From: Candidatus Moraniibacteriota bacterium
Lineage (GTDB): Bacteria > Patescibacteriota > Minisyncoccia > Moranbacterales > UBA1568
DNA length: 64,000 bases
Assembly: GCA_028711705.1 (NCBI GenBank)
Contig: JAQTRS010000001.1
Span: 98,761 to 162,760 of the forward strand
Reading direction: 5' to 3'
Made by a program: the position numbers and the translations under genes. The notes beneath the pieces are model-generated. The model was not told the origin of the DNA, searched no databases, and saw only the letters and a list, made by a program, of their open reading frames with translations. Shown piece after piece: positions 4,447-51,722 of this stretch; positions within the stretch are counted from its first letter, which is position 1; every line of letters begins with the position of its first letter.

Positions 4447-7400
4447 TTATTTAGCTTGAGGCTCGTCTTGCTGAATTATATCTTGATTCACCGGTTTACC
4501 CAAAGCCTGAGTCTCCATTCCTGAACTGAACTTTGCAAATTCGAAGAACCCGAATGTGAATACTGCCATCATTATGAGCGGTGCGACCAAGGATATATAG
4601 TTTCGCTTACCCGGCCTGAAAATCCTGAGCAAAAGAGAGTTACCCACAACGGAAATAGAACTCATCGCCATCGCCAGTCCTGCCAATTCCGGCTTAAGGA
4701 CAAGCCCGAATACGAAGAAGACGCGGGCGGCGATCGGAATCCCGATCACGTTATAGAACAGGGCGAAGAACATATTCTGACGTATCTTGCCCATAGTCTC
4801 TTTGGAGAGCTGAAACGAGGTCACCACATCATTAAGATCGCTCTTCATGATAACGATATCCCCCGCTTCCATAGCAACATCCGTTCCGGAGCCCATTGCG
4901 ATTCCCACATTGGCCTGAGCCAGCGCGGGTGCATCATTGATACCATCGCCGACCATCGCTACCTTTTTGCCGAGTGCTTGGATTTTTTTGACTTCATTGG
5001 CCTTATCTTCCGGCAATACCTCTGCCAAAATATTGGTGATCCCCACTTGTTTGGCGATCGCCTTGGCGGTGCGTTCATTATCTCCCGTAATCATCCATAC
5101 CTCGATGCCCATTTTTTGCAATTTGGCAACCGCTTCTCGCGACGTTTCTTTGACCGTATCGGCAACGGCGATCGTGCCGACCAAACCCTCCTTGGTTGCC
5201 AAAAGCATCGCTGTCTTCCCCTGTTCTTCAAGGCGAGACATTTTTCGATCGATCTTATTGATTGCCAAGCCAAGCGTCTCCGTCATGAGCTTTCGATTCC
5301 CGAAATAATACGTCGTGCCATTCACTTCACCCTGTACGCCGTGCCCCGGGATGGCATTGAAATTATGCACTTCTTCCAGATCGATCAGCTCCTCTTGAGC
5401 GTAGGTATAGATAGCCTCGGCCAACGGATGCTCCGAAAGTTTTTCCAGACTTGCCGCGATAGCCATGATTTCATCTTCATCCATGGCACAAAATGAAACA
5501 ACATCCGTCACTTCCGGTTTTCCATTGGTCAGTGTTCCGGTCTTATCGAAGATGACCGCGGAAATATTGCTGGCGGCTTCCAGCGCTTCGCCGCCCTTTA
5601 CCAAGATTCCGTATTCGGCACCCTTGCCTGTTCCCACCATAAGCGATGTCGGGGTTGCCAGTCCTAAAGCGCATGGACAGGCGATGACAATCACCGACGT
5701 AAACGCCATAAGCGCAAATGCAAGCGTCGAACCAAGAATGACATACCACACGAAAAACGTGATGATGGCGAGTCCGATAACCGCAGGTACAAACCATGCG
5801 GAAATATTATCCGCAAAATTCTGAATCGGCGCTTTGGAACCTTGGGCATCCTCGATGAGGCGGATGATCTGCGCCAGCGCGGTTTCACTCCCGATTTTCG
5901 TCGCCTCGAATTCAAAGCTGCCTGTCTTGTTCACCGTTCCACCGATCACACTGTCACCGACGTGTTTTTCAATCGGCAGACTTTCTCCGGTAATCATGGA
6001 TTCATCCACAGTGGATGATCCCTTAGTAATCTTTCCATCCACGGGAATCTTTTCTCCCGGGCGAACAAGGATGATATCGCCATGAACGACGCTCTCGATA
6101 GCAATATCGAGAGTCTTTCCGTCGCGTAGCACACGTGCGGTCTTCGCTTGAAGCCCCATGAGCTTCTTGATCGCATCGGACGTCTTGCCTTTCGTTCTGA
6201 TTTCGAGCCACTTACCCAAAATGACAAAAGTGATCAGGTACGCGGCCGTTTCAAAGTAGAGGTCGGGAATCTTCATGCCGCCCACGCCGATCAATGCATC
6301 GTTCGCCAGGACATAGGCAACATAGTTGTACAGGCTGTAGAAAAATGCCGTGCTCGTACCGATAGCTATCAGGCTATCCATATTGAACGTTTTCATCTTG
6401 AGCGCCGACCACATACCCTTGTAAAATCCCGCTCCGATAATGAACTGTATCGGTATGGTCAGGAGGAGAGAAAAAACGCCGATATATGGAGCAAATGCCG
6501 TTTCTCCGGGAAGCCACTTGAAAAAATCCAGTAACATAAAATACAGCATCGGCAAACTCAGGATGAAACTGAACATGAATTTGCTGAAGTACGAAGAAAT
6601 TTCCTTCTCGCGTTTTCGTGTCTCATATTCCGTATCCTTCGCATCCACTTCCTCTCCGCGATATCCCACTTTTGCAATCGCATCGATAAGCGCCTTCGTA
6701 TCCGAAACGCCCCCGTCGAAAAGGATAGAAGCTTTTTCAGCGGAAAAATTAACGTTCGCTTGTTTGACACCGGGAACCTTCTTGAGCTGCCGTTCGATGA
6801 TGTTTGCGCACGAAGAACAATGCATCCCGAAGAGCGATAGGCTCACGCGCTTGTTCGAGGAGTCTGGAGCAGCACTATTCGTAGCATCTGACACCATTTT
6901 GTTCTCAGAAGCGGCCGCTATGCTGTGTTGTGACAGAGTATTGTTCTGATCACCGCCAACAACCGCATCGAACAGATGCGAAAGGTTTGTCGCATTCACG
7001 AGCTGATCGACAAACCCGCGGGCTTGCATATCACCCTGAGGAATATCGAATTCCGCACTCCGATTATTCTTGATCTTACCCTCGAAATACGGTCGTCCGT
7101 CGGGTCCTTCGAGCACTTTTCCTTCTGCCTCGATCTTCGATTCAAGTTTCATGGTCATCGATGTATCATTCGCTACCGTGTTTTCGATAACCGTGATGTC
7201 CGATTTCTCCGGGGATACATCAGACGCTACCGTTTCTTCATCCGTAATCATAGCATCATATCCGGCGCGTTTCACCGCATCGATCACATCCTGTCGAGAA
7301 TTCATATCACTCTCCAGAGTCAGCGCTCCCGTACCGAAATTCGCATCAACAGTAACATCGCTCACACCGGGAAGCTCGCTCAATTCTTCTTTCGTAAGCA

Positions 7401-21625: not shown

Positions 21626-21700
21626 ACCCACAGTATACCACGAAACACCGGGGTCTTGAAATTTTTTCAATCTTTGGTATACTGAGACAGTTGCTAAAAT

Positions 21701-21745
21701 ATATAGCCAAGATATATTCAGACTCAGTCGGTAGAGCAACGCATT
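21701..21745 (+). other. Degenerate partial copy of the tRNA-Thr 5' half plus its upstream 10-mer (pseudo-tRNA remnant)
   Basis: atatagccaa + gactcagtcggtagagcaacgca repeats atatagccaa + agctcagtcggtagagcaacgca of the intact tRNA 80 nt downstream. No T-arm or acceptor 3' strand follows. Confidence 0.4.
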
Positions 21746-21785
21746 CTCAACGAGTAAACCGCATACTGCCATTACCATAAATATA

Positions 21786-21858
21786 GCCAATGTAGCTCAG
21801 TCGGTAGAGCAACGCACTCGTAACGCGTAGGTCACCAGTTCGATTCTGGTCATTGGCT
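21786..21858 (+). tRNA. tRNA-Thr (anticodon CGU)
   Basis: Cloverleaf: GCCAATG-TA-GCTC-AGTCGGTA-GAGC-A-ACGCA-CTCGTAA-CGCGT-AGGTC-ACCAG-TTCGATT-CTGGT-CATTGGC-T. A TATACT promoter lies about 110 nt upstream. Confidence 0.85.
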
Positions 21859-21868
21859 CACACAAAAA

Positions 21869-30093: not shown

Positions 30094-30101
30094 CCAAACG
30101 A

Positions 30102-30128
30102 TTAGCAGTCGTCAAGTCCGAGTGCTAA
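30102..30128. promoter_or_regulatory. CIRCE operator (HrcA binding site) upstream of dnaK
   Basis: TTAGCAGTC-N9-GAGTGCTAA versus the consensus TTAGCACTC-N9-GAGTGCTAA: one mismatch with a perfect right arm. Confidence 0.85.
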
Positions 30129-30377: not shown

Positions 30378-31415
30378 ATGCGTAGTTTTTTAACAACCAC
30401 CTCGTTCTTGGAACAGCTTGCCGTCCAATATTGCGGATCTCGTGAACGCCTTTCGATTAAGAAATATCCGGTGAACGGATACCCATATATCTTAAGCGGA
30501 CACTCCATACATCCCGCTAAACGAGGACTCTATGATTCTCAAGCGCTGCAGAAATTCATCACGAAACTCTTCAACAAAATTATCGACGCAGAGGAAAAAG
30601 ACAGCGGTAAGGTCAAAATCTTACGCGAAGCTTCACTGATCGATGACGGGCTTATCGCCAACAAATCAGCATTGCAAGACGTCTTCCAAAACGAAGATGC
30701 ATTCGTTGTCGAAGTCCCTCCCCTGCATGCGCAATTCAAGTGCAAACGCTTCGGAAGCGACTACGGTATAAGCGTACTCAGTACGAACGGCAGGAATGAG
30801 AAGCATCAAAAAATATCCTCCCTGCTCGATGATTGGCTACTGGAAGAAGATCGCCCCACCGGCCTAAGAACGCTCGAACATCGATACGTGATAACGACAC
30901 AAAGAACGTTTAGCGATTCAAGAAGCTCTGAAAAGTTCAATCTTTATGATGTATTAGAGGGTTTGAAAAAATATATCCCCTGGATCTGCTGGTTCGGTGG
31001 GTCTACTGATGTGGAATCCTTTGCCGCGAATCTTGTCGACCAATGGCGAAGCGAGTATCACGATACTACCTCTCTTGGAGAATACAAGGAGATCGATATT
31101 CGTGGCAGACTGCTCTACGGTACGGAAGAGCAAAGAAAGATGTGGGCATGGCGCTGCGGCAGCCTTGATACGGAACACCCTTTCGATGAAACTTCCGGAG
31201 TGGTGTCGTTTCGAAAAGGCCATTCCTCTCAAAATGATAACCCTCATATAGAGCTTATCATTTCCGCACCGGGGTTTTCCGAAGACAGCTGGGCTTTCGA
31301 AGGCGATGATGGCGCTCGCTGCTATCAGCATCAGTTCAAAATGGAAGCGGCAGCCATTCAGATCATCACAGGCCTCGGATTGTACGGGGATAAGGACATC
31401 GTGCGTTATATGTAA
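30378..31415 (+). CDS. Hypothetical protein (first gene of the insert between dnaK and grpE)
   Basis: 345-aa soluble ORF with no recognisable motifs, followed by a terminator. Confidence 0.55.
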   Translation: MRSFLTTTSFLEQLAVQYCGSRERLSIKKYPVNGYPYILSGHSIHPAKRGLYDSQALQKFITKLFNKIIDAEEKDSGKVKILREASLIDDGLIANKSALQDVFQNEDAFVVEVPPLHAQFKCKRFGSDYGISVLSTNGRNEKHQKISSLLDDWLLEEDRPTGLRTLEHRYVITTQRTFSDSRSSEKFNLYDVLEGLKKYIPWICWFGGSTDVESFAANLVDQWRSEYHDTTSLGEYKEIDIRGRLLYGTEEQRKMWAWRCGSLDTEHPFDETSGVVSFRKGHSSQNDNPHIELIISAPGFSEDSWAFEGDDGARCYQHQFKMEAAAIQIITGLGLYGDKDIVRYM

Positions 31416-31645: not shown

Positions 31646-32161
31646 TCAGGCTGCCGCCATACGATCTTTTGAACCTTTCGAGCAGCACTTCATGACATAA
31701 TCAGCCACGTGGCCGATCAGGCGTGATTGATCACCTTTAAAACTCATCGAGTCCAGATACGCTATGGCAAATTCACGCCATGGCGCTTCAACGGACATCG
31801 AGGGCGTATCACCACGCGATGAAGTGGCATATACCAACTGTGTTAAAAAACCATCCAGTTGATTCAACCCCAAAACATTGGTAAGAATCGTCCTGACTCT
31901 TAGGTTGTTCCAGTTTTCCGTCGCATTCATCAACGCAGTCAATCGGAGCACTTGCTTTTGACAGGCATCCTCCCCAGTTGGCTGAATCGGGAATTTACTT
32001 TTGATTTGAGCGAACGCCATTCTTGAATGCATACCAGATGCAACCCACAAATGTTCTAAAATGGTCGCTTCCGGCAGGCCAAGCCGATATAATTCTTCCA
32101 CAATGGGAAGTTCATCCGAATTCAGGCATCTTGATCCTGCAACAGGCATATTGGTATTCAT
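31646..32161 (-). CDS. Hypothetical protein (divergent from the RT gene)
   Basis: 171-aa ORF with no recognisable family; it shares a 240-nt divergent promoter region with the RT gene. Confidence 0.5.
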   Translation of the reverse strand: MNTNMPVAGSRCLNSDELPIVEELYRLGLPEATILEHLWVASGMHSRMAFAQIKSKFPIQPTGEDACQKQVLRLTALMNATENWNNLRVRTILTNVLGLNQLDGFLTQLVYATSSRGDTPSMSVEAPWREFAIAYLDSMSFKGDQSRLIGHVADYVMKCCSKGSKDRMAAA

Positions 32162-32400: not shown

Positions 32401-33111
32401 ATGAAAATAAAAAATACACCTCCCGGATTCGCTTCAAAGCTTCTCGGGAATGGGCGGCGTGTCTTTATAATAAAGCCCCGCAGCCTGGATCTATACACCG
32501 TCCAACAAGATGTCAAACAAGAATTGGGACGTATAACCGCGTTCACTAATCAATTTGATTGCGTGAAACGGCACCTGATTCGCAAGAGCAGATTCTTCTG
32601 GAAGGTGGACTTGCGGAAAGCATTCGATCATGTGACATTCGCATCAGTCACCACCATTCCCAACCTTCCTGATGATATAAGGCATTCCCCACAACTCTTT
32701 TTCCATACGAACGGAGGACTCATCCAAGGTGCCCCATCATCCCCGAAAATCTTCCAGCTGTTTTGCCAACAACGCTTGGATCCAGAGATTCAGAAGTTCT
32801 GCGGGAAAAATACTATCGTCTACACGCGTTTCGCTGACGATCTTCTGTTCTCATCGAGGAAGGCTATCGGGAAAGGCGCACGCGAAAGAATACGCATCAT
32901 CATCCGCTACGCTGGATTTCACGTCAATGAGAAAAAGGTATCGCTCGTGGACAACAGCTATACACCCATCGAATATCTCGGCATGGAAATTTTTCAAGGA
33001 AGAGTCTCTCCCGAAAAAGAATTCCTCAAAAGATTCTCACTCATTCCGGATGGGCCGGAAAAAACCGGGATGCGCGGCTGGATAAAATCGGTGCTTGCGC
33101 TCAATACATGA
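32401..33111 (+). CDS. Mini reverse transcriptase (236 aa; fingers/palm only, no thumb/X, maturase or endonuclease domains)
   Basis: RT motifs in order: FFWKVDLRKAFDHV (motif 2/A, catalytic D), GLIQGAPSSPKIFQLF (motif 4/B, QGxxxSP), YTRFADDLLF (motif 5/C, FADD), GFHVNEKKVS (motif 6/D) and YLGMEI (motif 7/E). The protein ends about 35 aa after motif 7. Confidence 0.8.
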   Translation: MKIKNTPPGFASKLLGNGRRVFIIKPRSLDLYTVQQDVKQELGRITAFTNQFDCVKRHLIRKSRFFWKVDLRKAFDHVTFASVTTIPNLPDDIRHSPQLFFHTNGGLIQGAPSSPKIFQLFCQQRLDPEIQKFCGKNTIVYTRFADDLLFSSRKAIGKGARERIRIIIRYAGFHVNEKKVSLVDNSYTPIEYLGMEIFQGRVSPEKEFLKRFSLIPDGPEKTGMRGWIKSVLALNT

Positions 33112-33527: not shown

Positions 33528-33872
33528 ATGTCCGTACTCATAGTACCGAAATCGATAATCAGAATCGTTATCGACCCCAATTCCAAAAAAATAGGTTCTA
33601 AACGAATCCAAAGAACAAATTCCGACCAAGCGCTGGATATCCAATATCCTGTCGTGGAAAAAGTCACAAAACAGACCTTGCTTATACAAGAGTTCGACAG
33701 CGATAATGGCAAAGCGCTCATACGATGCCGTCCCAACTCTAAAAAAACGGGTGAATATACCTATCTCTACTACGACAGAAACCACGAAAAAATTGAACAG
33801 ACTATCACCTCTTTGGCATTATTCGATGAAGGTGATGAGGAGATCAAGGTCAATGTCTTCCTTACCTGTTAG
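33528..33872 (+). CDS. Hypothetical protein (last gene of the insert)
   Basis: 114-aa ORF with a strong RBS (AAGGAG, 8 nt before the ATG), followed by a bidirectional terminator. Confidence 0.55.
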   Translation: MSVLIVPKSIIRIVIDPNSKKIGSKRIQRTNSDQALDIQYPVVEKVTKQTLLIQEFDSDNGKALIRCRPNSKKTGEYTYLYYDRNHEKIEQTITSLALFDEGDEEIKVNVFLTC

Positions 33873-35300: not shown

Positions 35301-35323
35301 ATGCTTTCAGTATACAATCCGAA

Positions 35324-35350
35324 TTAGCAGTCGTCAATACTGAGTGCTAA
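35324..35350. promoter_or_regulatory. CIRCE operator upstream of hrcA-grpE
   Basis: TTAGCAGTC-GTCAATACT-GAGTGCTAA: a 9-9-9 architecture with the same C-to-G variant in the left arm as the dnaK CIRCE. Confidence 0.85.
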
Positions 35351-37085: not shown

Positions 37086-38558
37086 ATGCTCAGGATTTAC
37101 AATACCCTCACCAAACAAAAGGAGATTTTCGAACCGCTCTACCCGGGAAAGGTCGGTATGTATACCTGCGGGCCGACGGTCTATGGGAAAATCCATATCG
37201 GCAATCTGCGCGCCTATCTCCTCGGGGATATGATACGCCGCTACTTCGAATACGCCGGCTATGAAGTGCGGGCCATCAAAAACATTACCGATGTCGGACA
37301 CCTCACCGACGACGATGTCGCCCAAGGCGATAGCGGCGATGACAAGATGATCAAGCAGGCCCTCAAAGAGCACAAAACGCCTCAAGAAATCGCACAGTTC
37401 TACGAGGAGTATTTCCACGTGACGGAAAAACAGATAAATATCCTCCCGGCTCACTATTTCCCTCGCGCCACCGCCCATATCCCGCAAATGATCAAACTCA
37501 TCGAGGAACTGATAACCAAAGGCCATGCCTATGAAAAAAACGGCAATGTCTTCCTCGATGTCACCACCTTCCCCGAATATGGCAGGCTCTCGGGCAACAC
37601 GCTCGACAAGCTCAAAGTCGGCGCCCGCCTCGAAGAACATCCCGACAAGAAAAACCCGTGGGACTTCGCGCTCTGGCTCAAGGCCCCAAAGAATCACCTG
37701 ATGAAATGGGAATCCCCTTGGTCCTTGGGGTATCCGGGATGGCATATCGAGTGCAGCGCGATGAGCATGGAATACCTTGGCGACACCTTCGACATCCACA
37801 CGGGCGGCGAAGACAATATCTTTCCGCACCATGAAGCCGAAATCGTGCAGTCCGAAGGCGTGACCGAAAAACCCTTCGCCCGCTACTGGCTGCATGTCCG
37901 CCACCTGCTTGCCGACGGCGTCAAGATGTCCAAATCCAAAGGCAATCTCTACACCCTCGAAGACATTCTCGACAAAGGCTATTCCGCCATGGACGTACGT
38001 TTCCTCCTCCTTTCGAGCCACTACCGCTCCCAGATGAATTTCACCTGGGAAGCCATGGATCAAGCCCGCTCCAATCGGGAGACGCTGCAGAATTTCCATG
38101 ACCGGCTTACCGAGTGTCATCCTGAGCCTGTCGAAGGATCTTTCCGATCAGAGCAAGATGCCTCGACTACGCTCGGAATGACACAGGATAAAATCTCTCT
38201 CGATACCGAGAAATATCGAGCCGATTTCGATGCCGCACTCGAAGAAGATTTCAACACGCCGCAGGCCCTGACCGTATTGTTCGACATGACCAAAAACGGC
38301 AATAAACTTATCGACGAGGACAGATTGGACAACCCAACCGATGTCCTGAAATTTCTGGAAACAAGCGCTGCCGTTCTCGGCCTGCAATGGACCAAAAAAG
38401 AAGCCATCCCGGAGCATATCCAAAAGCTCGCCGCCGACCGGGAAGAGGCCCGCAAACAAAGGAACTTCGCGCGTTCCGATGAGCTGCGAGAAGAGATAGA
38501 AAAAGCCGGGTTCAGTATCGAGGACACGGCCCAGGGTGCGAAACTCAAACGGATATAG
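37086..38558 (+). CDS. cysS: Cysteine--tRNA ligase (carries an in-frame palindromic-repeat insertion)
   Basis: HIGH motif (HIGNLRAY), KMSKS (VKMSKSKGN), Zn ligands and a DALR-like anticodon-binding domain ([10 protein letters not shown]). The 23-aa segment [23 protein letters not shown] is encoded by the repeat at 38115-38184. Confidence 0.95.
38115..38184 (+). repeat. Palindromic repeat family, copy A (in-frame inside cysS)
   Basis: tgtcatcctgagcctgtcgaaggatc...cgctcggaatgaca; the arms are imperfect reverse complements (GTCATYCYGAGC / GCTCGGAATGAC). Confidence 0.7.
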
Positions 38559-45639: not shown

Positions 45640-47685
45640 ATGCACTTCATCCAGGAACAAGTTCTTTTCTTTATCGCGATTTTCCTTGTTCTTTTCGTGC
45701 CGGGACTGGTTTTGCTGCGCTCTTTTTTCAAACACTCGTTCACATCGCTCGAGTGCTTCGTCTTTTCAGTGCCGCTCAGCATCGCCGCCACCAATTTCCT
45801 GATGATAACCTTAGGGAGATCCGGCATCACGCTGATGGTAGCCTCCATTATCGCAAGCATTATCGCTTTTACGCTGGTGACTTTCCTTGTCTCCAAAGCG
45901 ATTCCGCAGAAAACGACTCAGGAAAAGCGCAGCGGAATCAAACCCTTCACCAAAAACCAAGGTCGGCTCATCATCCTGATCCTGATTCTGACCATCTTCA
46001 TCAAGACAATCTATCTCTCGCAGGTCATCCTCCCGACCGCGACCGACCTTGGGCACCACATGTACTGGTCGAAGTCCATCGCCGTCACGGGCGAGCTTCC
46101 ACAGTATGTCGAGCGCAATATCGTCCGCTCCGAAACGGATGGTACATATGCTCTCGGCGAGGCGGAACCTATCGACGACTTCATCATTGGCGAACACCTG
46201 ATCTTCGCTGCCATCGCCCTCATCGCGGGCCTTGATTTCATATCCGGATTCCCGGCCATCATACTCCTTCTCATCAATATATTCTCGCTCCTCGCTCTTT
46301 TCCTGTTCGTCTTGCGCGCTTTTTCGCACCGATCGCTCGCGAAAACGGGCATCTCTGCGAACACGGTCGCCATTCTCACGCTCTTCGTGCTCGGTCCGCT
46401 GTATACCATTGCTTCACCTCAGGCAAAATTCGTTTCCGGCGGAGTAATCGGCAATACTATCGGCAACCTTTTTATACCGGTAATCCTCTATTGCTACTGG
46501 CGCGCGCTCCAAGAAAAAAGCTCGAAGCTTTTAACGCTCGCCTTCTTCCTTACCTTTGGACTCGTCTATATCCATCATCTCAGCACGCTCGTTTTCCTTT
46601 TCATTATCTTCTTCACTATCGTCATTTTCAGCATCCTCCACATCAAAACCATCCATATTAGCATCAAAGAGTGGGCGTTGCTCGTTTTCAAGCCGGCTCC
46701 CATCATCCTCGCTATCGCAGCCATTCTCTTTTCCTTCTTCGTCCTCGCGCCCAGCTATGCTGATCCGAAGTCGCTCAATACCGCCCTGGGCGCTCCAACC
46801 AAGGCGACCCGCACCGGGCTGACATTTCTGCAACTCACCTTCTCGACCGGAGAAGGGCGGCTCGGCTTGGGACTGGTCGGACTCCTCGCTTTAATTTTCT
46901 TCCGATTAAAAGAAAATCGTTCGATCAAAGAAGCTTCCTACGCGATTGCCTTCTTCTTCGCCTGGGGATTATCACTCCTCATCATGTCGCTTCGCCCACA
47001 GTGGCTTTTCCTCGACATCCCTTCCAATCGCATCAGCACCTATGCCATTTTCCCGTTCGCGATACTTTCAACCCTTGCTTTCACGCTTCTGTTCAAGCAA
47101 CAGAAAACCATTAACAGTCAACAATCTACCCGAAATGCTTCGGATAACGATGCCGGCGGGTCAACAATCAACGAAAAACACTCCCGTAACAACACACCCC
47201 TAACAATCAGCGCCTTCATCGTTATCCTCACATTTTTTATTGTCGGAGGATTCTACGATAACGGACAAAGCCTCCTTGGGAAAACCAAGGCGCAGGAAGC
47301 TATCGAAACCTACCACGTTTCTGATTATCTCGCGCAGCATACAAATCAGAACGACATCATCCTCAAGGATCACAACTATATCGTCGCTGATTCCTGGATG
47401 AAGCTCTCATTCCTTCGAGGCTACACCTATCCGCTCTCACGCGGTTACTTCAAACGCTACGAAGACGAGACCAAGCCGCGCGAACAATGCTCGCTCTGGA
47501 TGATCGCCGTACCAAACACCGACAAAGGACAGAAATGCTTCAATGAAACCGGCACTGATATCATCGTCGTCAACCCTCATTTCGACAGCACTCAATTCAA
47601 AAAATCCCCAGATTTCAACTCCATATACCAATCCGGTGATATCGCGGTGTATATGAGAAAAAACCAGTCAACAAACAGCGATTAA
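45640..47685 (+). CDS. Large polytopic membrane protein with a C-terminal extracytoplasmic domain (probable cell-envelope glycan polymerase or GT-C-like protein)
   Basis: 681 aa with at least 12 TM helices and a roughly 200-aa hydrophilic C-terminal domain, inside the glycosyltransferase cluster. Confidence 0.65.
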   Translation: MHFIQEQVLFFIAIFLVLFVPGLVLLRSFFKHSFTSLECFVFSVPLSIAATNFLMITLGRSGITLMVASIIASIIAFTLVTFLVSKAIPQKTTQEKRSGIKPFTKNQGRLIILILILTIFIKTIYLSQVILPTATDLGHHMYWSKSIAVTGELPQYVERNIVRSETDGTYALGEAEPIDDFIIGEHLIFAAIALIAGLDFISGFPAIILLLINIFSLLALFLFVLRAFSHRSLAKTGISANTVAILTLFVLGPLYTIASPQAKFVSGGVIGNTIGNLFIPVILYCYWRALQEKSSKLLTLAFFLTFGLVYIHHLSTLVFLFIIFFTIVIFSILHIKTIHISIKEWALLVFKPAPIILAIAAILFSFFVLAPSYADPKSLNTALGAPTKATRTGLTFLQLTFSTGEGRLGLGLVGLLALIFFRLKENRSIKEASYAIAFFFAWGLSLLIMSLRPQWLFLDIPSNRISTYAIFPFAILSTLAFTLLFKQQKTINSQQSTRNASDNDAGGSTINEKHSRNNTPLTISAFIVILTFFIVGGFYDNGQSLLGKTKAQEAIETYHVSDYLAQHTNQNDIILKDHNYIVADSWMKLSFLRGYTYPLSRGYFKRYEDETKPREQCSLWMIAVPNTDKGQKCFNETGTDIIVVNPHFDSTQFKKSPDFNSIYQSGDIAVYMRKNQSTNSD

Positions 47686-47726
47686 CAGTTAACGAGAAAA
47701 CAGCCTCACCGATAATCAACTACTGC

Positions 47727-47901
47727 GTTAATAGAGAGGTGACATGTTTGATTGAGAGTCCGGCACCTAGGCGCGATAAGAGCCAGGTACGCAAAGGCAA
47801 GACCTGTATGGATGTTATCTTCCCTCTATCTCGAAAGAGATTCCCATCGCTAACGCCGATCATGTCGGACTCGAAAGCGAACATGTCACCTCTCTATTAA
47901 C
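47727..47901. repeat. 175-nt element bounded by perfect 22-bp inverted repeats (MITE-like or highly structured RNA)
   Basis: gttaatagagaggtgacatgtt (47727-47748) is the exact reverse complement of aacatgtcacctctctattaac (47880-47901). Nested internal pairings include gagtccg/cggactc and an atctc-gaaa-gagat GNRA hairpin. It occupies the gap between two + strand genes. Confidence 0.55.
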
Positions 47902-47912
47902 CACACAACATC

Positions 47913-48263
47913 ATGTCTCAAAAATCCGTCATCATCGCCATCATCTCCCTCCTCGCCCTAAGCTTCATCAGCCTCGGCTTCATCGAAAACCGCGCTAAAG
48001 ACCCCAACCTCAATAAAGATTGGTGGGCGCTTTCTTTCCAGAATCCTCACGGAAACAGCCTTGATTTCACCATTGAAAATCATAGTAACTCGAACAACTT
48101 CACCTACGAGGTAACGCAGGACGCAACCACACTCACCAAGGAAGCGATCATCATCCCAAAAGGGACCACAAAAAACATCTCGATAAGCCAAAGAACCTCA
48201 GACACTAAAACGATGATCAGCGCCTGGACGAACGATGAAGATAAGAAAGAGATTTATAAATAA
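47913..48263 (+). CDS. Hypothetical secreted or membrane-anchored small protein
   Basis: 116 aa with an N-terminal signal anchor (VIIAIISLLALSFISLGF) and a Thr/Asn-rich body. Confidence 0.5.
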   Translation: MSQKSVIIAIISLLALSFISLGFIENRAKDPNLNKDWWALSFQNPHGNSLDFTIENHSNSNNFTYEVTQDATTLTKEAIIIPKGTTKNISISQRTSDTKTMISAWTNDEDKKEIYK

Positions 48264-48288
48264 ACACGCTTCTCAAACAACACATCCT

Positions 48289-49527
48289 ATGTCAATCAAA
48301 AAAATCCTGCTCGCAACGCGGCCGCTCACTCCTCCTTGGGACGAAGCTTCCAAAAATTTCGCGTATTTCCTCGCTAAGAGCATCAAAGATCCGGAATTGC
48401 AGATGAATATCCTTACCACGTCGACTCCGCTCGATGGCTTGGGAGACAATGTCGTATCACACCCTATATTCCCCCTCTACGATGCCTCGCGCGCCGGGCA
48501 TTCTTTCTCACAAAAAGTTATCCTTTCAAAATACCTCTTTACTGAAAGCCACCGCTACGATATCGTGCACTACCTTTTCACACCGACCGCGCTCAATTCA
48601 GCCCTCATCAGAAATTTCACCTATCGACGTCCGAAAACCGTACAGACCATCGCTACATTACGCGAGGATTTGTACGGGCCGAAAGACTGGAAGAAAATGC
48701 TATTCGCCGATCGTATCGTAACCTATTCGGATTATTCCAAAAGAAAGCTCGAGGCGAACGGATTTACAGGAATCGAACGTATTTACCCGGGAATAGACCT
48801 CGACCTCTATGCTCCGAAACCGAAAAACGAAGAGGCTCTCAAGCACTTCGATCTTACACGTGAAGATGTTGTCGTGATGTATCCGGGAGAATATGTCCGC
48901 CTCGGCGCAACCGATATGCTCGTAGAGATGCTCATTACATATTTAAAATCACAATCTTCTGATTGTCATCCCGAGCTTGTCGAGGGATCTTCCCAGATAG
49001 AAACAGATTCCTCCACTACGGTCGGAATGACACGTGCAAAAACCATCACATTCATCTTCGGTTGCCGGATTAAAAACGAAGCGGATCAAAAGAAAAAAGA
49101 CGAAGTTGTCGCCAAACTCACCCAGGCAGGCATCATCGACTGCGTCAGATTCACCGACACCTGGAAAGATATGCCGACGCTCTACAATCTTTCTGATATC
49201 GTCATCTTTCCGGTCGAGAATATGCGTGGAAAATTCGATATCCCACTCGCCATCATCGAAGCCTATGCCTGCGGAAAGCCGGTCATTCTCTCTGATCTGG
49301 AGATTTTCCAAGAGTTCTCCTCGCCGGAATTTTCCGTCACCATTCCTTTGGCACGCCAAAGCCTAAGCGAAGGCGGCCGCACCCTCTGGCAAACCATCCT
49401 TGACCTGCAATCCGATGAATCAAAAAGAAAAAGGCTCGGCACAAATGCACGAACTTTTACTGAGCAATTCTTCGATTTAAAGAATACCGCTCAAAGCTAC
49501 GAAAGGTTATATGCTTCACTGCAGTAG
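48289..49527 (+). CDS. Family 4 glycosyltransferase (carries an in-frame palindromic-repeat insertion)
   Basis: GT-B fold with a C-terminal EAYACGKPVILSDLEIFQEF E-x7-E-like motif. The segment CHPELVEGSSQIETDSSTTVGMT is encoded by the repeat at 48964-49032. The start is chosen at MSIKK to avoid overlap with the upstream gene. Confidence 0.8.
   Translation: MSIKKILLATRPLTPPWDEASKNFAYFLAKSIKDPELQMNILTTSTPLDGLGDNVVSHPIFPLYDASRAGHSFSQKVILSKYLFTESHRYDIVHYLFTPTALNSALIRNFTYRRPKTVQTIATLREDLYGPKDWKKMLFADRIVTYSDYSKRKLEANGFTGIERIYPGIDLDLYAPKPKNEEALKHFDLTREDVVVMYPGEYVRLGATDMLVEMLITYLKSQSSDCHPELVEGSSQIETDSSTTVGMTRAKTITFIFGCRIKNEADQKKKDEVVAKLTQAGIIDCVRFTDTWKDMPTLYNLSDIVIFPVENMRGKFDIPLAIIEAYACGKPVILSDLEIFQEFSSPEFSVTIPLARQSLSEGGRTLWQTILDLQSDESKRKRLGTNARTFTEQFFDLKNTAQSYERLYASLQ
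48964..49032 (+). repeat. Palindromic repeat family, copy B (in-frame inside the GT4 gene)
   Basis: tgtcatcccgagcttgtcgagggatcttcccagatagaaacagattcctccactacggtcggaatgaca, 69 nt (23 codons). Confidence 0.7.
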
Positions 49528-49624
49528 CCCTCTCGCTTAAAAGCAAGACGGGGGTACATCCACGTGTTTCAAACTCAAGGCTCAGGTTGCAAACCTGAAC
49601 TTGCGAAATAAAGTAAACATTGTA

Positions 49625-49658
49625 AAACCGTCATAAGAGCTCTTATGACGGTTTTTCG
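49625..49658. terminator. Terminator built on a perfect 30-nt palindrome
   Basis: aaaccgtcataagag|ctcttatgacggttt followed by TTCG; an A-run precedes it, so it could act in both directions. Confidence 0.65.
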
Positions 49659-50135: not shown

Positions 50136-51722
50136 ATGTCAACCATAAAAATTGAGAAATTAGCCGAACATAAACAGCAGTTCCAGACGGAAAAAATGAA
50201 GGTTCCGGTGGTTTTACATATCAACGATGCGCTGCTTCCCGAAGAGTCCACGCTTTTGCAGCTGCAGTCCGTCGCGTCCAATGACTGTTGCTTTCATCAC
50301 ATCGCCGGCATGGCCGATGTTCACTCCAAACCCGGACGCAAAAACGCCACCGGCACAACCGTAGCTTCCGAAAAGTTCATCCTGCCTCAGGTCAACGATT
50401 CCGACCCGGCCTGCGGTATGCGTTTGGTCCGCACCAACCTGACCGAAGACAATATCACACCGGAGGAACTCGACAAACTTTTCAAGGAACTCGTCTACAA
50501 GGTACCCACCAAAAAATATGTCGGTACCTATATCCCCTTCCGCGTCGTCGTCGACATCTGCCGCAAGGGTATCGGTCCGCTTATCGATCACCTCGGCATC
50601 AAGACCAAATTCGAAAAGGAGAACGCCTTGGGAGGCGAGAACTTTTTTACCACCACTCGTCATCCCGAGCTTGTCAATGGATCTCCTCAAACAGAAATAG
50701 ATTCCTCCGCTACGGTCGGAATGACAAATGGAAGCGCCCCCTCCCGCCAAGACATCTTTAACATTATTCCCAAACTCTTCCTATTTTTCGCGCAATTCCG
50801 TCTCGGTATCTTAGGCGCAGCCGGCAACCACTTCCTTGACCTCATGAAGGTCACGGACATTGAGGACGAGGAAACCGCGCAGAAACTGGGCATCAAAAAA
50901 GGCCAGTACCTCTTCATGGTGCACTGCGGATCAGGCATACTCGGGCAGTACACGATGTATATGTATACCGCCAAGAAACGCGAACACCTCTCGACCGCTA
51001 TCCTCATGAATATCGGGCGCTTCTTCTGGAGCACGCCGTACAGAAAAACCATCGACCTGATCGCCAAGAAAATACGCGAATCGGACTTCGGAAAGAAAGA
51101 GCCGCTTATCACCTTCGATGGCGAGGGCGACGACGGGAAAATGTATATGGCGGCCCGCAATGCCTGCTCCAACTTCGCCCATGCCAATCGCGCCGTTATC
51201 ACGCACAATGTCGGCGAAACGATCCAGAGAGTGCTCGGCCGCGACGCAGGGCTTGAGCTTCTCTATGACATGCCGCATATCCTCGTGAGTAAAGAGGAGC
51301 ACTTCGGCAAAAATATCTGGGTGCACCGCAACGGGACCTCACGCGCCTATGGCCCATCCCGCATGAAAGAGCATCCGCTCTTCAGCCAGACCGGCGAACC
51401 CGCCTTCATCCCGTCCTCCATGAGCACCGAAGCCTATATCTGCGTCGGTACCGACCACAACGAATCCAGCTTCTTCTCCTGCAACCACGGCGCCGGAAAA
51501 GCCGCTAAAAAAACGGAAGATATCGTCCCGGAAAGCCAAGAGGAGCTCCGCAAAAAACTTAAGTCCAAGGGAGTCCAGCTCTATAACGGTCAGTCCAAGA
51601 AAGTCATCGAGCAGGACTCCTCGCACTACAAGCGCATCGAGGATGTCATCGCCGGAGCCAAGGCGAACAATATCGTAAAGCCCATCGCCAAGATGCAGCC
51701 GATTTCGATCATCATGTACTAA
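50136..51722 (+). CDS. rtcB: RNA-splicing ligase RtcB (carries an in-frame palindromic-repeat insertion)
   Basis: RtcB motifs ACGMRLV (metal-binding Cys), HCGSGILGQY and CNHGAGK (catalytic His region). The 23-aa segment RHPELVNGSPQTEIDSSATVGMT comes from the repeat at 50658-50726. Confidence 0.9.
   Translation: MSTIKIEKLAEHKQQFQTEKMKVPVVLHINDALLPEESTLLQLQSVASNDCCFHHIAGMADVHSKPGRKNATGTTVASEKFILPQVNDSDPACGMRLVRTNLTEDNITPEELDKLFKELVYKVPTKKYVGTYIPFRVVVDICRKGIGPLIDHLGIKTKFEKENALGGENFFTTTRHPELVNGSPQTEIDSSATVGMTNGSAPSRQDIFNIIPKLFLFFAQFRLGILGAAGNHFLDLMKVTDIEDEETAQKLGIKKGQYLFMVHCGSGILGQYTMYMYTAKKREHLSTAILMNIGRFFWSTPYRKTIDLIAKKIRESDFGKKEPLITFDGEGDDGKMYMAARNACSNFAHANRAVITHNVGETIQRVLGRDAGLELLYDMPHILVSKEEHFGKNIWVHRNGTSRAYGPSRMKEHPLFSQTGEPAFIPSSMSTEAYICVGTDHNESSFFSCNHGAGKAAKKTEDIVPESQEELRKKLKSKGVQLYNGQSKKVIEQDSSHYKRIEDVIAGAKANNIVKPIAKMQPISIIMY
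50658..50726 (+). repeat. Palindromic repeat family, copy C (in-frame inside rtcB)
   Basis: cgtcatcccgagcttgtcaatggatctcctcaaacagaaatagattcctccgctacggtcggaatgaca, 69 nt. Confidence 0.7.

Follow-up and report, generated by a model that had tools for sequence, protein, structure and literature searches.

The window, by which we mean the whole stretch of 64,000 nt of DNA that was analysed, comes from an uncultured member of Candidatus Moranbacteria (Patescibacteria/CPR) and contains a surface-glycan gene cluster encoding a UDP-glucose dehydrogenase, a GT2 and a GT4 protein, a DUF6541/DUF1616 membrane protein, a small protein and a second GT4, with a Wzx/MurJ-type flippase further along. A 227-nt intergenic gap, from the stop of the membrane protein gene at 47685 to the ATG of the small-protein gene at 47913, houses the element studied here, and the small-protein gene is followed by the second GT4 glycosyltransferase gene. 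The features of the junction are the following.

45640 to 47685, plus strand: upstream gene, a 681-aa polytopic membrane protein (DUF6541/DUF1616, assigned by Pfam)
47663 to 47726, plus strand: extra non-hairpin sequence of about 64 nt to the left of the element, including the 7-aa protein extension NQSTNSD
47689 to 47716, plus strand: weak sigma-70-like site TTAACG-N16-GATAAT, scoring 9/12, just upstream of the hairpin
47727 to 47748, no strand assigned: left arm of the perfect 22-bp inverted repeat (5' strand of helix P1), GTTAATAGAGAGGTGACATGTT, fully paired with 47880-47901
47749 to 47755 (TGATTGA) and 47873 to 47879 (GAAAGCG), plus strand: 5' and 3' sides of a 7x7 'internal loop' between P1 and P2 in the predicted fold
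47756 to 47765, plus strand: 5' strand of helix P2, GAGTCCGGCA, pairing with 47863-47872
47767 to 47770, plus strand: CTAG at the P2/P3 junction
47770 to 47773, plus strand: 5' strand of helix P3, GGCG, pairing with CGCC at 47854-47857
47797 to 47833, plus strand: most conserved block, GCAAGACCTGTATGGATGTTATCTTCCCTCTATCTCG, which contains the extended -10-like sequence TGTTATCTT
47857 to 47862, plus strand: CGATC(A/T), opposite CTAG
47863 to 47872, plus strand: 3' strand of P2, TGTCGGACTC, pairing with 47756-47765
47880 to 47901, no strand assigned: right arm of the inverted repeat (3' strand of P1), the exact reverse complement of GTTAATAGAGAGGTGACATGTT
47913 to 48263, plus strand: downstream gene, encoding 116 aa with a hydrophobic segment at the N-terminus; no family matches the protein

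A first-pass annotation of this DNA had described a 175-nt element with 131 nt between two perfect 22-bp arms, ending 11 nt before the ATG at 47913. The sequence and coordinates of the arms, the dimensions of the element and its placement all proved exact, and the inner complementary segments listed there (gagtccg/cggactc, caggt/acctg, atctcGAAAgagat and ggatg/catc) were every one found within it. The arm 22-mer has two sites only in the 64-kb window, both of them here, and a match of this kind was not seen in any of 100 dinucleotide shuffles, even with 3 mismatches allowed. Beyond the perfect 22 bp, complementarity of the arms reaches 39 nt at 87%. Just four inverted repeats in the window have arms of 16 nt or more; that of the element is by far the longest, the other three being short palindromes. 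The predicted RNA fold of the element has an energy of -81.7 kcal/mol on the plus strand (z = -9.65) and -79.3 kcal/mol on the minus strand (z = -8.1). The sequence downstream of the element reads CCACACAACAUC. The Logan assembly of run SRR22315508 (L001), possibly from the same sample as the metagenome-assembled genome, has an identical element in the same orientation, hence the element is not an artefact of one contig's assembly.

The mechanical ORF of the downstream GT4 begins at 48235 and overlaps the 116-aa gene (48235-48290 of the window); since the orthologues begin at MSIKKILL, translation probably starts at the ATG some 51 nt further on, so that a short spacer would remain. In the gap of 600 nt between this GT4 gene and rtcB we also observed a perfect 16+16 palindrome with a spacer of 0, AAAACCGTCATAAGAG/CTCTTATGACGGTTTT, at 49624-49655.

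Used to scan GTDB species genomes, the membrane protein gave 80 Moranbacteria loci, to which homologues of the small protein added about a dozen contigs. The pair of membrane gene and small gene is conserved in about 90 of these loci and its two members are usually separated by 1-20 nt, with a median of about 10 nt. Given that some 90 loci keep the pair at about 10 nt and that the gap here is 227 nt, the element is an insertion; it is missing at about 88 of the 90 orthologous junctions. In the nearest relatives the gap measures 1-3 nt (L087, L091-L093), 21 nt (L089), 87 nt (L002) or 127 nt (L090, L094-L096). The insertion also bears on the upstream gene, as the ancestral stop codon of the membrane protein is lost or displaced along with it, and the C-terminal seven residues NQSTNSD are absent in relatives. 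The protein ends in VYMRKNQSTNSD (47663-47685), and close relatives all end in VYMRK or alike.

Gaps of more than 50 nt at this junction were found in 19 loci (among L002-L081 and L084-L099), and 12 of these 19 fold far better than shuffles, with z from -3.8 to -9.8. Examples are the junction hairpins of L058 (188 nt), L059 (180 nt), L060 (179 nt), L077 (124 nt) and L090/L094-L096 (127 nt). These 12 hairpins are unrelated in sequence to the element and mostly to one another too; homology to the element was rejected for those of L090/L094/L095, L002, L058 and others (p > 0.05). The content of the L047 gap (218 nt) is obscured by a masked run of N bases at about 5950-5990. Two readings fit this junction: a hotspot of palindromic insertion, or a place at which a hairpin is favoured.

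Palindromes are also found inside genes. A palindromic repeat of about 75 nt lies in frame in three genes of the window, its form being GTCATCC CGAGC ... TCGGAATGAC (also written GTCATCC...GGAATGAC) and its translation ...HPELVEGS...DSSTTVGMT....

38116 to 38190: copy in the CysRS gene
48965 to 49039: copy in the GT4 gene
50659 to 50733: copy in the RtcB gene

The GT4 orthologues of L090 and L092 are without this repeat, and other palindrome-derived insertions occur in the GT4 orthologues of L087 and L090, at the same or another position. Furthermore, the junction gaps of L059 and L060 carry palindromes with GTCATT-type terminal repeats, like that of the in-frame repeat of the window. The in-frame repeats, the differing GT4 insertions and the junction palindromes together argue that small palindromic insertions are active and tolerated in the clade.

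The sole sequence related to the element occurs at the same junction in one other species, represented by three independent assemblies (L084, L085 and L086), whose small protein is 72% identical to that of the window. Positions 13-178 of the L084 gap align in reverse orientation to the window gap, with 63% identity over 167 nt (E = 1e-13; local-alignment z = 23), and this inverted copy has arms of its own of about 30 bp. Positions 194-264 align in forward orientation to the 3' 71 nt of the window element with 69% identity, and this partial copy stops 8 nt short of the ATG. At the inner edge of the right arm L085 agrees in orientation with L084. Orientation is opposite between the two species and single within each species across all assemblies. 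A neighbour-joining tree of the flanking proteins, a weak tree made from short sequences, places the window and L084 as sisters.

The element regions in this relative lie at 555-826 of L084, 1-147 of L085 and 1-134 of L086. The assemblies of L085 and L086 end 15 nt and 2 nt, respectively, inside the inner edge of the right arm. These ends could reflect branching of the assembly graph, at a repeat or through a mix of orientations, or nothing more than low coverage; that of L084 is only 2.2x.

In the two-species alignment all 32 arm pairs (P1, P2 and P3) are intact in both species. Compensatory double changes affect 11 of the 32, as against 0-2 in slid-register controls, and one of 500 shuffles reached the observed compensatory value. 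Four of the 10 pairs of P2 and two of the 4 pairs of P3 have compensatory changes relative to L084. As judged from these sequences, the element's arms co-evolve, and their complementarity has been maintained over evolutionary time.

The unpaired parts show a mixed picture. CTAG and CGATC(A/T) are conserved in L084; both are unpaired and they are mutually non-complementary, yet they are kept in both species, and the terminal TTAAYAGAGAG is likewise kept in the L084 homologue. Direct counting gave 31 of 37 positions (about 84%) of the central block the same as in L084, and 20-nt windows within it reach up to 90% identity, as compared to about 50-65% elsewhere in the element. The 7x7 loop, with the oppositions U.G, G-C, A.G, U-A, U-A, G.A and A.G on the plus strand, is not a conserved motif, since the equivalent stretch of L084 is fully paired. 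The nested internal helices of the first-pass annotation are present in the window, but none of the four has compensatory support: two of them, caggt/acctg and ggatg/catc, are missing from the two-species consensus, and just four pairs of the atctc-GAAA-gagat hairpin recur there, none of them compensatory. The window's arms have five oppositions that are not Watson-Crick, and on the plus (mRNA) strand each of them is G.U or purine-purine, a pattern (about 1 in 16) which hints weakly that the transcript matters.

Two ORFs traverse the element, one of 53 aa and one of 54 aa. Both were absent in an exact look-up against a collection of 15 billion proteins, and the 54-aa ORF, on the minus strand, had no homologues in a protein-level search. 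A small conserved peptide (MDVIF...) was rejected, as its lengths are 30 aa and 14 aa and it is without a ribosome-binding site.

At gathering thresholds Rfam reports two tRNAs alone in the whole window; at E <= 10 the 400 nt around the element give chance snoRNA matches, mostly in the adjacent coding region. The silence of the Rfam covariance models rules out identity with 6S RNA, a riboswitch, a ribozyme, RNase P or Y RNA, and an apparent likeness of GAGUCCGG...GCCAGGUA to RNase P P4 was dropped on the same ground. A GAAA tetraloop/11-nt receptor pair (UAUGG / CCUAGG) was rejected because its halves are unable to face each other in a helix. Intrinsic terminators consist of a short GC-rich stem followed by a U tract; at the element nothing resembles such a site and the stem runs into no U tract, and a terminator was rejected. 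Integron attC sites are marked by RYYYAAC at the 5' end, GTTRRRY at the 3' end, extrahelical bases and an IntI integrase. The element's ends, GTTAATA...TATTAAC, are the reverse of the RYYYAAC/GTTRRRY order, the first 22 bp of its stem have no bulged bases and the window has no integrase, so that attC was likewise rejected. Retron msr-msd RNAs lie directly upstream of their own reverse transcriptase; the only reverse transcriptase of the window is 15 kb off, beyond housekeeping genes, and this identity was rejected as well.

That reverse transcriptase (236 aa, 32401-33111, plus strand) gives weak retron-type matches to RVT_1 and to NCBIfam retron St85/Ec67, far below the cut-offs. No obvious msr/msd-type repeat was found upstream of it, and its neighbours at 30378-31415, 31646-32161 and 33528-33872 are without a family match.

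The organism uses standard sigma-70 promoters, as can be seen at the CIRCE operators TTAGCACTC-N9-GAGTGCTAA (30101-30128 and 35323-35350), which overlap canonical TTGACG-N17-TATACT promoters of dnaK and hrcA-grpE. No canonical promoter of the TTGACA-N16-18-TATAAT type was found inside the element. The extended -10-like sequence TGTTATYTT of the central block is at homologous positions in both species. The 9/12 site TTAACG-N16-GATAAT did not rise above chance in a regional scan; the L084 copy is preceded, on the same strand of the element, by the look-alike TTAATG-N18-TATAAT, and homology of the two promoter-like left flanks was rejected. No complementary target for the central block turned up anywhere in the window.

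The search for other copies that the first-pass annotation had proposed returned none in the other genomic contexts covered. There is no second copy in the 64 kb of the window, which is roughly 10% of the genome. Searches by blastn, nhmmer and a covariance model across 80-94 Moranbacteria loci found no further homologues beyond the L084 group, and a profile HMM and a covariance model made from the two copies gave no further match when run over the window and 807 kb of Moranbacteria DNA. Exact scans for the 17-mer and 19-mer of the terminal repeat in IMG/VR and JGI metagenomes, the latter with the 19-mer only, yielded nothing real, the one single-arm match in each being a chance occurrence in an unrelated high-GC contig. 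The central-block pattern had 0 matches in IMG/VR, and plasmids and phages had no blastn match to the element. Pfam scans of about 55 ORFs of the window revealed no transposase, tyrosine or serine recombinase, resolvase or integrase.

The flanks that had been suggested as the place to look for a target duplication, ...ACTGC|G and C|CACAC, share no direct repeat. A candidate TTAA/TA duplication can be laid out as gcgTTAA|TAGAG...CTCTA|TTAAcc; being itself palindromic, it merges with the inverted repeat, and hence a TTAA/TA target-site duplication is not demonstrable. The unoccupied junction in L089 reads TCATCTGTTAACA.

Of the readings considered, the one we favour, tentatively and at a little under an even chance, is a low-copy, MITE-like palindromic insertion that is co-transcribed as a long mRNA hairpin. 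Terminal inverted repeats bound a short element without a transposase gene, and orthologous sites show presence/absence polymorphism, both as expected of a MITE; multiple dispersed copies were not found, the sole duplication being the two copies at the L084 junction. The first-pass annotation had offered a very recent MITE-type insertion as one of two readings. The insertion stands, but 'very recent' finds no support, given a 63%-identical homologue at the same junction of the sister species; comparison of the orthologous intergenic region, as had been suggested, showed the element to be absent from most relatives and inverted in L084. The same annotation had named four findings that would count against its proposals. 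Three of them were made, namely that the element is unique, that no duplication is demonstrable and that there is no conserved multibranch fold; the fourth, lack of conservation, was not. The MITE-like reading is weakened by the lack of a second copy, of a demonstrable target duplication and of a known parent IS. It is weakened also by a centre that is better conserved than the terminal repeats, the reverse of what recognition by a transposase predicts.

Under the MITE-like reading, the insertion would have become fixed in the spacer of two co-transcribed surface-glycan genes in the common ancestor of both species. The operon transcript would include the element, which would fold to an irregular hairpin of about 45 bp with a perfect basal duplex of 22 bp and so may return the upstream stop codon and the downstream start codon to proximity. 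By analogy with Correia-type MITEs, the hairpin would probably be a processing or stability site for the double-strand-specific RNase III. A review of MITEs describes copy numbers down to 1, nesting, inversion and cleavage by RNase III at terminal repeats, and for Correia elements promoters, inversion, nesting and an RNase III cut at the paired terminal repeats (PMC10969869). Neutral decay would not be expected to leave two diverged copies with perfect arms, so a maintenance process is needed. The arms may be kept complementary by selection for a closed mRNA hairpin, by homogenisation at the DNA level, or by both. Selection for the mRNA hairpin is independent of orientation and thus fits the flip, and homogenisation could proceed by template switching or by gene conversion between the arms; template switching can both create and maintain such stems (PMC8794818, PMC13100816). 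The flipped copy in L084 may stem from recombination between the arms or from a second, nested insertion.

The element may instead be a structured RNA, acting either as a leader at the 5' end of the small gene's mRNA or as a separate sRNA transcribed on the element's own strand, whose stem presents the central block to a protein or RNA target. The three covarying helices, the conserved unpaired CTAG and CGATC, the central block at about 84%, the fold z-score of -9.65 and the G.U or purine-purine nature of all five non-Watson-Crick arm oppositions on the plus strand are consistent with this, as is a promoter-like TTAAYG ... [G/T]ATAAT that in both species closely precedes the base of the hairpin, on one and the same strand of the element. 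However, the upstream flanks that carry these promoter-like sites are non-homologous, and such sites occur at chance level in AT-rich DNA. Rfam is silent even at E = 10, the range is two species only, the inner helices are not conserved, there is no terminator, the window offers no target complementary to the central block and the partial copy in L084 resembles decay. A shared role as a cis-acting leader is impossible, because the L084 homologue is antisense to the operon. The structured RNA of the first-pass annotation therefore survives in its long stem, with 11 compensatory pairs, but not in the rest, having no Rfam match, an inverted homologue and a range of two species, and we consider an RNA of this kind unlikely.

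A further explanation is an invertible DNA switch (inverton), in which recombination between the arms flips the segment and turns expression of the downstream small protein and GT4 on or off, giving phase variation. Perfect repeats do bound a segment of 131 bp (or 97 bp) directly upstream of surface-glycan genes. The orientation is opposite at the same junction of the sister species, the element is confined to a single locus, and its arms are identical within a species and diverged between species, as expected of recombinational homogenisation. The extended -10-like TGTTATYTT is conserved inside the segment that would flip, and two of the assemblies from the L084 species are interrupted right at, or close to, the right arm's inner edge. 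Against this, no tyrosine or serine recombinase was found among the roughly 55 ORFs of the window scanned with Pfam, although one may lie elsewhere in the genome, and the element holds no canonical promoter although the organism uses TTGACG-N17-TATACT. The complementarity runs well past a recombination site, through the covarying P2 and P3, and a simple flip leaves the additional partial copy of L084 unaccounted for. Each species shows one orientation only across assemblies, and unrelated hairpins occupy the same junction in other lineages. We regard a switch of this type as distinctly unlikely. Stated more generally, a functional orientation-switching module, be it an inverton for phase variation of the surface-glycan operon or a selected lineage-specific structured RNA, appears rather improbable.

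Last, the palindrome could have been made in place, by template switching that copied a neighbouring spacer inverted and then kept correcting a quasi-palindrome to a perfect one, which is a documented mechanism (PMC8794818, PMC13100816) and would agree with the lack of other copies and of a transposase, with perfect arms in both lineages and with the resemblance of L084 to an inverted duplication beside a forward remnant, but relatives contain nothing equivalent to the entire gap of about 240 nt that could have been copied, and the 75-nt centre is not palindromic. We regard this origin as very doubtful. It differs from the MITE-like reading only in how the palindrome arose, and the present data do not separate the two.

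Among known systems, the element is close to the bacterial MITEs Correia/CREE of Neisseria, ERIC and RUP. Like these it is about 100-200 bp long and non-coding, has long terminal inverted repeats and lies, presumably co-transcribed, in an intergenic spacer near a start codon; it shares with them a plausible RNase III hairpin, copies that nest and invert, and a possible TA/TTAA target (PMC10969869). Those families are dispersed in tens to hundreds of copies and have TA duplications that can be demonstrated, whereas the element occupies one locus in two species, is best conserved at its centre and not at its ends, and has no known parent IS.

The element also recalls the Rickettsia palindromic elements and the GTCATT-type palindromes of its own clade, as small palindromes tolerated at permissive sites of reduced genomes, but it has no sequence similarity to them, is intergenic and longer, and occurs once per genome sample; it is the 75-nt in-frame repeat of the window that resembles Rickettsia palindromic elements in coding genes. 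With invertons such as the Bacteroides capsular switches, C. difficile cwpV/flgB and E. coli fimS the element has in common repeats of about 20-30 bp, a segment of 100-300 bp, a position upstream of surface-structure genes and an orientation that differs between two related genomes. In contrast to invertons, it shows no recombinase and no convincing internal promoter, its hairpin runs past the repeats, and both orientations were not seen within one population in the assemblies. It resembles 6S RNA and long-hairpin ncRNAs in its size of about 175 nt, its long closing stem and its internal loops, and it departs from 6S RNA in lacking a covariance-model match and a rod-like conserved centre, in its narrow range and in being inverted in its only relative. 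The element is real and statistically well founded, and it is most likely a new, low-copy member of a familiar bacterial class of palindromic insertions, at a junction that has taken up such elements repeatedly.

If the MITE-like reading holds, streamlined CPR genomes accommodate hairpin insertions not only at a few permissive junctions within operons but also inside genes, and such hairpins hold their pairing across species-level divergence. This kept pairing calls for caution, in that covariation between two sequences is not proof of an RNA gene. To our knowledge, regulation in Moranbacteria and Patescibacteria is almost unexplored. Should the inverton or the structured RNA be true after all, it would offer a rare handle on regulation or phase variation in an uncultured episymbiotic lineage, and such a switch or selected RNA would be the first for Moranbacteria/Patescibacteria.

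Elsewhere in the window we observed a partial duplicate of the 5' half of tRNA-Thr(CGT) at 21700-21785, directly upstream of the intact gene at 21786-21859. The duplicate carries the repeated leader TATATAGCCAA, is not called by ARAGORN or Rfam, and may be a remnant of an integration or of a duplication.
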